From a virus, in IMG/VR virus record IMGVR_UViG_3300045988_041382, positions 9,104-73,103 of that record: 64,000 bases of DNA; one strand, 5' to 3'. The notes below the pieces were generated by a model. That model did not search any database, was not told the origin of the DNA, and saw only the letters and a program-made list of their open reading frames with translations. Of the stretch, positions 17,097-18,627 are shown in pieces. Numbering within the stretch: the first letter of the stretch is position 1; every line of letters starts with the position of its first letter. The position numbers were made by a program, and so were the translations under genes.

Positions 17097-17372
17097 ATGA
17101 CCAAGAGCGAGTTTATTTCCACTCTGGCAGCAGCGACCGACATGAAGAAGTCCGACGTCGAGCGCGTGATCGCCGCCGCTGCCAACACCCTTACCGGCGT
17201 CATGCGCTCCGGCGACAGCGTGAATATCTCCGGCTTCGGCATCTTCACCAGCAAGGTCCGCGACGCGCACCCCGGCAAGAACCCCGCTACCGGCGAGACC
17301 ATCACCGTCCCCGCTAAGCGCGTGGCCATCTTCAAGCCCGCAAAACAGCTCAAGGATGCCGTCAACAGCTGA
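17097..17372 (+). CDS. hup: HU family DNA-binding protein
   Basis: MTKSEFISTLA...FGIFTSKVRDAHPGKNPATGETITVPAKRVAIFKPAKQLKDAV is the typical HU/IHF signature. 91 aa. Confidence 0.95.
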   Translation: MTKSEFISTLAAATDMKKSDVERVIAAAANTLTGVMRSGDSVNISGFGIFTSKVRDAHPGKNPATGETITVPAKRVAIFKPAKQLKDAVNS

Positions 17373-17412
17373 CGGCGCAGGGCCGTACCCACACAAAATA
17401 TCCCACATTACG

Positions 17413-17446
17413 AGCCGGACGGCACACCGCCCTCCGGCTTGTTTTG
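17413..17446 (+). terminator. Rho-independent terminator after hup
   Basis: Stem AGCCGGA/TCCGGCT followed by tgttttg. Confidence 0.65.
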
Positions 17447-17559
17447 CAAACTATATTTCCGTTGCGTTTTGAATATCGGCAAATATGCAAACACAGCCGG
17501 CGAAAAACATAACACGCTTTGCAAAAGCACAACAAATAACCAAAGACACACTTTGCAAA
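17443..17559. promoter_or_regulatory. Three copies of the 8-bp palindrome TTTGCAAA upstream of the cysteine desulfurase gene
   Basis: Copies at 17443-17450, 17518-17525 and 17552-17559. Confidence 0.4.
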
Positions 17560-17586
17560 ACTTCTTACGAAAAGGAGAAACCTGAC

Positions 17587-18627
17587 ATGATCTATTTCGA
17601 TAACGCCGCCACCACGCCGGTGCTTCCCTGCGCGTGGGACGCCATGAAAGCAGCGCCGGAGGGGAATCCGTCCAGCAGCCACGCCGCTGGCCGTGAGGCA
17701 AAAGCCGCGCTGGAGAAAGCCCGCGCCACCATCGCCCGGTGCATCAACTGCGACCCCAGCGAGGTCTACTTTACCTCCGGCGCGACCGAGGCGTGTAATT
17801 GGGCAGTCAAGAGCATCTGCTCCACCGCAGATTTCCGGCACCGCTCGATGATAGCCAGTCCCTTCGAGCATCACGCCGTTACCGAGGCAGTAGCGCAGTA
17901 CAACGTCTCCAAGTACACCAAACTGGACCTCGCACAAATGCTGGTCAATAACGAAACCGGGCAAATTTACAACATCAAAAGGTTTCGTGGAAATGTTGGA
18001 TTGTTGGCTTGTGACATGACTGCGGCCATCGGTCACATCTCCGTAAATGTGGAAGAACTTTCCCCTGATTATGCAATGTTTGGAGGCCACAAATTCGGCG
18101 CTCCCAAGGGCATAGGAGCGTTGATCGTCAAGGAGGGGTGTCCCATTACCCCCCTGCTCTACGGCGGCGCACAGGAGCGCGGAGAGCGCGGCGGAACGGT
18201 GTCCGTGCCGCTGGCCTGCGCGATGGCGGCGGCGCTGGAATGGCACACCGCCCACATGGAGGAAAATATCACCCACCTCATCGACCTGCGGGATCGCCTT
18301 TTACACCGCCTCACGGAAAGCGGCGTGGAATACCGGGTAAACGGCGGTAAAAATGTCGCCGCCCACATCCTGTCCCTCACATTCCCCGGCGTCTACGGTG
18401 CATCCCTGGCAGCCGCCCTCAGCGAAAACGGCGTCATGGTGTCTACCGGCTCCGCCTGTTCCTCCGGCGACAACGCCGCCTCCGCCAACCTCATGGCCAG
18501 CGGCCTTACCGAGCAGGAGGCACTGGAGACCATCCGCTTCTCCTTCGACTGGTACAACACCACCGCCGAGGCATCCGAGGCCGCCGGCATCATCGCCGAT
18601 ATAGTCCCCACCCTCCGTCGCGGTTAA
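17587..18627 (+). CDS. Cysteine desulfurase (NifS/IscS-like class V aminotransferase)
   Basis: N-terminal MIYFDNAATTP; PLP-lysine region FGGHKFGAPKGIGAL; catalytic-Cys loop STGSACSSG. RBS aaaaggagaaacctgac. Confidence 0.9.
   Translation: MIYFDNAATTPVLPCAWDAMKAAPEGNPSSSHAAGREAKAALEKARATIARCINCDPSEVYFTSGATEACNWAVKSICSTADFRHRSMIASPFEHHAVTEAVAQYNVSKYTKLDLAQMLVNNETGQIYNIKRFRGNVGLLACDMTAAIGHISVNVEELSPDYAMFGGHKFGAPKGIGALIVKEGCPITPLLYGGAQERGERGGTVSVPLACAMAAALEWHTAHMEENITHLIDLRDRLLHRLTESGVEYRVNGGKNVAAHILSLTFPGVYGASLAAALSENGVMVSTGSACSSGDNAASANLMASGLTEQEALETIRFSFDWYNTTAEASEAAGIIADIVPTLRRG

Follow-up and report, generated by a model that had tools for sequence, protein, structure and literature searches.

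This report concerns a cysteine desulfurase of the NifS type encoded by a phage, and its relation to a PP-loop protein encoded in the same genome. The DNA analyzed is a 64,000-nucleotide stretch of the IMG/VR virus record IMGVR_UViG_3300045988_041382 (the window, whose own numbering is used throughout), and its source is a ~75-kb temperate siphophage from the gut. The desulfurase gene (hereafter NifS) lies on the + strand beside an HU gene and a tRNA island. On the opposite strand, 11 kb away and in a separate module, is a gene of the phosphoadenosine phosphosulfate (PAPS) reductase family, followed by a gene of the radical S-adenosylmethionine (SAM) superfamily. The initial annotation had proposed that the desulfurase relays sulfur to the PP-loop protein in a minimal phage pathway for thiolation of tRNA or DNA. 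We find that NifS is a conserved gene of its phage clade, and that it is kept with or without the PP-loop gene. The features on which the argument turns are the following:

17373..17586, + strand: non-coding leader of the desulfurase gene, with the ribosome-binding site AAGGAG at 17572-17577 and in-frame stops in relatives
17587..18627, + strand: compact group-I (NifS/IscS-type) cysteine desulfurase of 346 amino acids (aa), with the predicted pyridoxal phosphate (PLP) lysine K169 (GGHKF) and catalytic cysteine C291 (GSAC)
5170..6243, - strand: PAPS-reductase-like PP-loop protein of 357 aa (Pfam PAPS_reduct, 6e-12; phrog_424)
4397..5149, - strand: DUF5131 protein of the radical-SAM superfamily, with a CX3CX2C motif (CRHGCAYC; Pfam PF07505, 3e-45)

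The desulfurase gene had been listed as an open reading frame (ORF) at 17485-18627 (+), which matched Pfam Aminotran_5 (8e-49) and had NifS (2e-71), DndA and IscS as its top NCBIfam matches. A start at 17485 was rejected in favor of the ATG at 17587, because the ribosome-binding site lies 9 nt 5' of this ATG, because the 34-codon upstream extension has in-frame stops in five relatives, and because nearly all of the 120 database matches listed are 341-354 aa long. No riboswitch or other regulatory RNA was found in the leader, which gave zero Rfam matches at E <= 1.

Both motifs quoted in the initial annotation, HKFGAPKG and GSACSSG, are present (within GGHKFGAPKG and STGSACSSG), and both are invariant in 35 family members. 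Across the 35 alleles from viral loci and 32 database homologues, the invariant motifs are FDNAAT, NPSS, FTSG, HH, NNETG, GGHK, GGxQERGxRGGT, GSAC and RFSF. The protein has the class-V aminotransferase fold assignment and the PLP lysine in an (S/G)HK motif (Aminotran_5, GGHKF). The loop VSTGSACSSG (residues 285-294), whose G288, S289, A290 and C291 do not vary, is of the group-I kind and lines up with the Cys loop of 1ECX, the Thermotoga maritima NifS that is also the best PDB match by sequence (4e-55). The earlier view that the enzyme is likely active was borne out in so far as the invariance of the catalytic motifs in 35 relatives makes it look active. It shares with NifS/IscS (1ECX) the fold family, the HK motif of the PLP lysine, the His stack, the GSAC loop and a C-terminal RxSF. 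It differs in being ~30-45 residues shorter and in having neither the IscS-type C-terminal tail nor an adjacent NifU/IscU scaffold gene.

The desulfurase is a divergent and shortened branch of this family. Relative to 1ECX and to full-length phage and bacterial NifS, 30-45 residues are gone between EHHA and NNETG (~111-145 of 1ECX). The same deletion, together with the motif AQMLVNNETG, occurs in the 341-aa NifS of L033, a 104-kb phage contig of 32% GC, and deletion and motif are partly in common with the NifS of L030 (46% identical). These shared features define a compact, phage-borne NifS branch, whose aligned members are 341-361 aa long and whose PHROG family is phrog_12787, labelled 'unknown function'. 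When genome contigs were searched for a cell-borne source, only four matches came back: two lie on phage-like contigs that had been assigned to metagenome-assembled genomes, and two are distant. No host origin emerged from them.

NifS is fixed in its position. Of the 29 viral contigs with an HU gene of at least 76% identity, every one also carries NifS (29/29), so the two genes form a fixed pair. HU is ~99% identical across 27 relatives; it is a neighbor of NifS and at most a putative partner. The median ratio of nonsynonymous to synonymous substitution (dN/dS) of NifS is 0.32, indicating purifying selection, and is twice the values of HU and integrase. Relative to the window allele, synonymous divergence (dS) is ~0.8-0.9 for NifS in most relatives, as against 0.00-0.10 for HU and ~0.2 for integrase on the same contigs. 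Divergent NifS alleles between similar flanks, with this dN/dS, are what would be expected of old alleles that are shuffled by recombination and held under purifying selection, and the pattern suggests allele swapping. The hypervariable cassette comprises NifS and the middle of the next ORF (window 17587-18995 compared with L003-L036), with a dS of ~0.85. The window allele is nearest to that of L003, where HU and integrase are the divergent ones.

The association of NifS with the PP-loop gene was examined by a slot test within the clade, anchored on the conserved MT-A70 methylase adjoining the PP-loop gene. Three Pfam-assigned genes form the backbone flank of the slot, and a further methyltransferase-like gene lies on the other side of DUF5131:

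6265-6573, - strand: helix-turn-helix (HTH) protein
6576-7001, - strand: DUF7448 protein
7008-7565, - strand: MT-A70 DNA methylase
3449..4042, - strand: DNA methyltransferase-like protein (phrog_799, 3e-41)

The flank genes at 6265-7565 are kept at 94-98% in relatives. The PP-loop gene occupied the same slot in 14 of the 21 NifS-carrying contigs, and the slot was closed in seven (7/21). The closest GenBank record is MT835520, a human faecal 'Bacteriophage sp.' contig that matches the window as a mosaic at 90-96% nucleotide identity. It encodes HU (99%) and NifS, but neither the PP-loop gene nor DUF5131 occurs anywhere in its 58 kb. NifS alleles that are 97-98.6% identical were found both with and without the PP-loop gene. 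The link between NifS and the PP-loop gene is thus clearly not obligatory in the window's clade. From the other side, no NifS gene was found within 10 kb at any of the 80 closest PAPS-reductase loci, in a PP-loop family that is present on at least 599 viral stretches with at least 8000 database matches, mostly on 35-45-kb contigs. DUF5131 and the methyltransferase-like gene at 3449-4042 were found in none of 24 clade relatives, and window 3449-5149 is therefore a recent insertion in this phage. With a facultative PP-loop gene, a DUF5131 gene absent from the relatives (0/24) and genes that are unlinked, 'minimal pathway' proved too strong a term for this phage.

NifS genes were found in at least eight phage contexts, and at least six of the contexts other than the present one have no PP-loop neighbor. 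NifS lies beside a dUTPase gene in L033, 3' of genes for a C5 methylase and an N6-methylase-like protein in L408 and L411 (2204-7269), beside replication genes in L410, beside RNA-ligase-like and polynucleotide-kinase-like ORFs (identified by eye) in L409 (5998-10721), and beside Bro/Ant-like genes in L405-L407. Such repeated, independent acquisition by phages fits the role of a general sulfur donor.

Two further loci were set aside as phage contexts, since MT835613 (L283) and MT835487 (L284) look like fragments of bacterial chromosomes. By eye and from N-terminal sequences only, the former reads IscR-IscS-IscU followed by GAPDH and PGK, and the latter NifS followed by MnmA. In L281 (MT835511, 22-10125), three large ORFs precede a NifS-like gene, and the first of them encodes a 1335-aa P-loop ATPase; this locus may represent a defence island and not cargo of a phage.

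Our preferred reading, to which we assign a probability of about 0.5, is that NifS is a general donor of sulfur and iron-sulfur (Fe-S) clusters and that PP-loop and radical-SAM-like proteins are its optional clients. Going by the conserved residues, PLP bound to K169 would strip sulfur from L-cysteine and C291 would hold it as a persulfide. NifS would then serve as a phage version of the cellular IscS/NifS hub, providing more persulfide during infection or lysogeny to any acceptors at hand. Among these, in this phage, are probably the PP-loop protein (5170-6243) and the DUF5131 protein (4397-5149), accessory cargo in an early region rich in DNA methylases, which would receive Fe-S clusters, sulfur for nucleic-acid thiolation, or both. 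In clade members without that cargo, host thiolation and Fe-S enzymes would be the acceptors. Where nucleic acid is thiolated, the gene context leans toward DNA rather than tRNA as the target.

Several points weigh against a general donor. The desulfurase scores far below the NCBIfam equivalog cut-offs (NifS 241 against 531 bits, DndA 198 against 480, IscS 189 against 643), and the 30-45-residue deletion could change partner binding or activity. The structural model of NifS, with a predicted local distance difference test (pLDDT) score of 51.3 from a shallow alignment (at least 73% identity), was too poor for use. No gene of the IscU, SufE, TusA, ThiI or MnmA type adjoins NifS. The sequence read covers ~20-35 kb of each related contig. 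PAPS-reductase genes were reported in ~4% of honey-bee gut phages (PMC13369170), as against two thirds of the clade, so that some link to the PP-loop gene is conceivable. The low scores also bear on the idea that NifS donates no sulfur to the phage at all, but acts on another substrate (as a selenocysteine lyase or cysteine sulfinate desulfinase), manipulates host pools of cysteine, alanine or sulfide, or is a hitch-hiker of little use. Scores far under every equivalog cut-off, a large stretch missing by comparison with every solved homologue, a dN/dS twice that of HU and integrase, and the naming of a homologue by one source as 'cysteine sulfinate desulfinase/cysteine desulfurase' would all agree with this. 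We nevertheless consider it very improbable in view of the catalytic residues of cysteine desulfurases, all of which, including the Cys loop, are invariant among alleles with dS up to ~0.9, of a gene that is fixed (29/29 contigs), and of a compact form that persists in phages of 32% to 57% GC.

The PP-loop and DUF5131 genes, like HU and the desulfurase ORF, lie where the initial annotation had placed them, each with a Pfam match. Apart from the PP-loop and DUF5131 proteins, no product of the window has an obvious Cys cluster. The PP-loop protein contains SFSGGKDS (SGGKDS at 48-53), the pair C187-C188, and C287-x2-C290-x4-C295-x2-C298; of these, C187, C188, C295 and C298 are shared by all 33 sequences compared, and the PP-loop motif is invariant too. 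It thus combines the PP-loop-like nucleotide-binding fold with the CC...CxxC Fe-S motif of the adenosine phosphosulfate (APS) type. True PAPS and APS reductases (CysH) carry a C-terminal catalytic ECG(L/I)H motif. The PP-loop protein has no ECGLH anywhere, its C-terminal end being ...GLGYARVLDYIGVRY. Its Pfam PAPS_reduct match covers profile positions 2-51 of 175 only, and weak matches to the SspD (2e-6) and BrxP (1e-5) models are confined to the PP-loop segment. It matched neither the NCBIfam DndC model, which we take to be TIGR03183, nor the PADLOC DndC model. A structural model (pLDDT 53.5, from an alignment equally shallow at 73% identity or more) was not used for conclusions; a Foldseek search of the PDB with it gave nothing at E < 0.001, the weak top matches being to PP-loop enzymes, NAD synthetase and TtuA among them. 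PDB sequence and profile searches with the PP-loop and DUF5131 proteins returned no usable homologue. By its motif and its PF07505 match, the DUF5131 protein is a member of the radical SAM superfamily, of which DUF5131 has been named a subgroup (PMC9477430).

A tighter arrangement was found in a second phage lineage. At six DUF5131 loci a NifS-like gene lies upstream, with a distant PAPS-reductase-like gene further upstream. The PP-loop protein of this type, represented by L145 and L168, is 26% identical to that of the window (E = 4e-27) and has the DxCC and RTGCxxCGFG motifs in common with it. It was used as a new query, and the loci of 80 relatives were inspected. The 12 closest relatives are 445-488 aa long and carry an extra C-terminal CxxC...CxxC segment, and a full-length NifS gene lies 6-24 nt 3' of the PP-loop gene in all ten loci with enough sequence (10/10). 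No NifS was found near the other 68, more distant, relatives. The CxxC...CxxC segment, of ~60 residues, belongs to the NifS-coupled branch (L145, L168, L289-L300) and is missing from the uncoupled relatives; the PP-loop motif reads VGGLDS.

This lineage is also phage, with a gpA-type large terminase gene downstream. DUF5131 stands 0-3 genes beyond the coupled PP-loop and NifS pair, which it follows in five loci. The order in L168 is Rep-like, nucleoside-deoxyribosyltransferase-like, PP-loop, NifS and DUF5131, and in the relatives L186 and L129 a C5 DNA methyltransferase gene stands between the same two genes that flank the L168 pair. A C5 methyltransferase gene is near DUF5131 in 46 of 80 loci; in L149, L157 and L166 the pair is located further upstream and is followed by an N4/N6 methyltransferase gene. 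DUF5131 was considered as a dedicated third partner and rejected, since in its own lineage it belongs to the backbone and is present with or without the pair: around DUF5131, an upstream NifS occurs in only 5 of 46 loci and the PP-loop gene in only 6 of 46. The coupled NifS is a separate, full-length lineage, ~36% identical to the window NifS. These neighborhoods are good evidence that a PAPS-reductase-like protein is able to cooperate with a cysteine desulfurase, and such cooperation probably acts on DNA.

Sulfur relays from DndA/IscS to DndC and from SspA to SspD are established (PMC12914056, PMC12707154). The window resembles the Dnd and Ssp systems in having, within one genome, a NifS-like desulfurase (DndA model, 3.5e-79; SspA model, 6e-83) and a PP-loop protein of the PAPS-reductase family with an Fe-S-type Cys cluster. 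It differs in that the two genes are unlinked (11 kb, opposite strands) and occur together only facultatively. The initial annotation had noted the absence of DndD and DndE equivalents, and none was found: there was no DndD/SspC ATPase and no DndE/SspB among the window proteins scanned, with ~10 kb of the genome lying outside the window. The PADLOC scan covered ten proteins (eight larger unassigned ones, ORF 2542-3171 and the HTH protein), and the neighbors of the PP-loop gene were checked too; none of them matched a Dnd, Ssp or Brx model. A P-loop nucleoside triphosphatase (NTPase) partner, DndD or SspC, is needed for phosphorothioate synthesis, and phosphorothioate was absent from gut isolates with a PAPS-reductase domain but no NTPase partner (PMC12914056). 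Lacking such partners, the window genes are unlikely to carry out classical phosphorothioation; another thiolation, or a non-sulfur chemistry, is conceivable for the PP-loop protein.

Both gene families are familiar from viromes. In a rumen virome, iscS and cysH were reported as the auxiliary genes that occur on the largest number of contigs (PMC5704599), and the window PP-loop gene falls in PHROG 424, 'phosphoadenosine phosphosulfate reductase'. Virome papers treat the two as separate helpers, in Fe-S assembly and sulfate assimilation respectively, without functional test (PMC13369170, bioRxiv 2026.02.18.706556). As iscS and cysH are already catalogued in phages, the novelty of finding them here is modest; the window PP-loop protein does differ from true CysH in the missing catalytic motif. 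In Bacillus, the two genes of the pairs YrvO-MnmA and NifZ-ThiI stand side by side, and the NifS-type enzyme hands its sulfur straight to the PP-loop ATPase. These pairs may be the best functional analogue of the coupled L145/L168 pair, with the differences that the PP-loop protein of the phage is of the PAPS-reductase and not of the MnmA/ThiI branch, and that the DNA-methylase context points to DNA over tRNA.

The L145/L168 lineage and the Dnd and Ssp relays are what a dedicated relay would have in its favor. The desulfurase would pass its persulfide to the PP-loop protein, which would adenylate phage DNA (less likely tRNA) and exchange oxygen for sulfur, with help from DUF5131, giving a minimal protection of the Dnd/Ssp kind. 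The 6-24-nt spacing of PP-loop and NifS genes in 10/10 loci, with DUF5131 after them in five, agrees with this, as do the DndA/IscS-DndC and SspA-SspD relays (PMC12914056, PMC12707154). So do the placement of the L168 pair in the C5 DNA methyltransferase slot of L186 and L129, that of the window PP-loop gene among three DNA methylase genes, and the invariance of the CC...CxxC cysteines and the PP-loop motif. For the window we nonetheless judge such a relay unlikely. Nearly identical NifS alleles persist where the PP-loop gene is missing, in 7/21 relatives and in MT835520; the genes belong to separate modules on opposite strands, 11 kb from each other; and no NifS is found near the 80 closest PP-loop loci or near 68 of the 80 loci of the second subfamily. 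DUF5131 belongs to the backbone of its own lineage irrespective of the pair, the coupled NifS is full-length, separate and ~36% identical to that of the window, no P-loop NTPase or DndE/SspB was found, and NTPase-less gut isolates have no phosphorothioate (PMC12914056). The relay as first proposed is thus partly supported: a link between the two kinds of gene has backing from the L145/L168 lineage, whereas in the window's clade it is opposed by a co-occurrence of 14/21 only and by near-identical alleles that lack the PP-loop gene.

The position of NifS beside a tRNA island raises the question of tRNA thiolation. The + strand block containing NifS has the following further features:

15708..15777, + strand: tRNA-like element whose anticodon arm is shortened (52 bits on the Rfam tRNA model; no call by ARAGORN)
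15955..16068, + strand: tRNA-like element of 114 nt (Rfam tRNA, 43 bits; tmRNA model, 31 bits, at the two ends only)
16394..16470, + strand: tRNA-Gly(UCC) (ARAGORN, Rfam), kept in 31/34 NifS loci
16963..17038, + strand: tRNA-Met(CAU) (ARAGORN; Rfam, 56 bits), kept in most NifS loci
17097..17372, + strand: HU/IHF-family DNA-binding protein of 91 aa (Pfam Bac_DNA_binding, 2.3e-27; phrog_379)
18669..18995, + strand: conserved small ORF, 108 aa as listed with a start possibly at Met 17, in 29/34 loci
19000..19164, + strand: conserved small ORF of 54 aa without Cys, in 30/34 loci at ~78% identity
19983..20795, + strand: Bro-N domain (antirepressor-like) protein (Pfam Bro-N, 1.1e-5)
21066..22109, + strand: tyrosine integrase at the end of the block (Pfam Phage_integrase, 9e-18; phrog_1), in 31/34 loci at ~96% identity

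The order of tRNAs, HU, NifS, small ORFs and integrase is kept across the clade, and the same island in relatives encodes Thr(CGU), Gly(UCC) and Met(CAU). The island described in the initial annotation holds up for two sound tRNAs, Gly-UCC and Met-CAU; by ARAGORN and Rfam the other two elements are aberrant and tRNA-like. The element at 15708-15777 occupies the position of the relatives' tRNA-Thr(CGU), to which it aligns with a 3-nt gap in the anticodon arm, and may be a decayed or unusual tRNA. The element at 15955-16068 has an acceptor stem, a T arm, an encoded CCA and a ~45-nt insert, and folds no better than shuffled sequence (z = -1.3).

If NifS fed host enzymes of the ThiI, MnmA or MiaB type, phage or host tRNAs would be thiolated and translation or frameshifting tuned. 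NifS lies 550 nt 3' of the tRNA island, an adjacency seen clade-wide and also in the distant relative L030, and both sound tRNAs have U at position 8. Bacillus offers precedents in its dedicated pairs of desulfurase and tRNA thiolase. A second precedent comes from a study of Escherichia coli, according to which the flux of IscS sulfur into tRNA thiolation governs frameshifting and infection of phage lambda (PMC3296357). Against these stand the lack of a ThiI, MnmA or TtcA gene in the window and the compact NifS of L033, which has no tRNA within 10 kb. In addition, the conserved tRNAs (Thr-CGU, Gly-UCC and Met-CAU) are not known to be substrates for 2-thiouridine at position 34 (s2U34) or 2-thiocytidine at position 32 (s2C32), and the adjacency may merely reflect a common cargo region near the integrase. 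We therefore think it distinctly improbable that tRNA service is the function of NifS.

Two ORFs 3' of NifS were ruled out as persulfide acceptors, as they have no invariant Cys and no family match; in the alignment of relatives, the ORF at 18669-18995 showed no invariant Cys, and it had no Pfam or PHROG match. About 40 further window proteins were scanned against Pfam, PHROG and PADLOC, and no additional thiolation or Fe-S enzyme was found among them. In the early region, the DUF5131 protein matched the PADLOC candidate-defence models PDC-M41B and PDC-M30B (1e-43), and ORF 2542-3171 matched PDC-M11B (4e-12).

The window, of 57% GC, is phage sequence along its whole length. A long leftward gene block contains the DnaD-like, DnaB, large DNA methyltransferase, portal and tape-measure genes. 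At ~7.6-24.4 kb there is a mixed-strand stretch holding the + run of tRNA island, HU, desulfurase, two small ORFs, Bro-N and tyrosine integrase. The possibility that the tRNA-HU-NifS stretch is host DNA beside a prophage was rejected because phage markers (tape-measure, portal, DnaB, DnaD-like genes and integrase) lie on both sides of it and because more than 29 viral contigs, as well as MT835520, show the same gene order. The IMG/VR relatives are 43-92 kb long. One distant relative's contig was binned as Oscillospiraceae; this is the sole clue to a host, and Oscillospiraceae can be named only as a guess.

MT835520 starts exactly at a tRNA-Trp gene (window 42148-42222, -) and stops near window 23631; it lacks the 18.5-kb tail region (window 23631-42145), and its own 22970-33454 is without counterpart in the window. 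This mapping implies a circular or permuted genome of ~74-75 kb, of which ~10 kb lie beyond the window. In the relative on L369, a 154-kb metagenome contig (9510-14862), the integrase gene is followed by convergent endolysin and holin genes 36 nt away. The attachment site is therefore not between integrase and endolysin, and may be near the tRNA island.

By itself, the window reveals a conserved, probably active phage desulfurase that is independent of the PP-loop gene, and a compact phage-specific branch of NifS is now defined. The L145/L168 lineage is the cleaner test case for sulfur transfer to a PP-loop protein, with its tight coupling and with the L168 pair in a DNA-methylase slot. Surveys of gut, rumen and insect viromes have repeatedly counted phage 'cysH' and 'iscS' among the auxiliary metabolic genes. 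We tentatively propose, while regarding it as unlikely, that the PAPS-reductase-like genes of gut phages, reported to be among their commonest 'metabolic' genes, are not concerned with sulfate assimilation but form the sulfur-inserting half of a minimal two-protein system for nucleic-acid thiolation, which would mark DNA against restriction without DndD/E or SspB/C. In such a system the desulfurase half would be phage-encoded here and in L145/L168 and would be supplied elsewhere by host IscS. If true, this would be a sulfur-based DNA modification so far undescribed in phages. Should the PP-loop protein be a desulfurase-fed DNA thiolase, many ecological readings of these genes as 'viral sulfur metabolism' would need revision, and the pair would represent a new anti-restriction chemistry.

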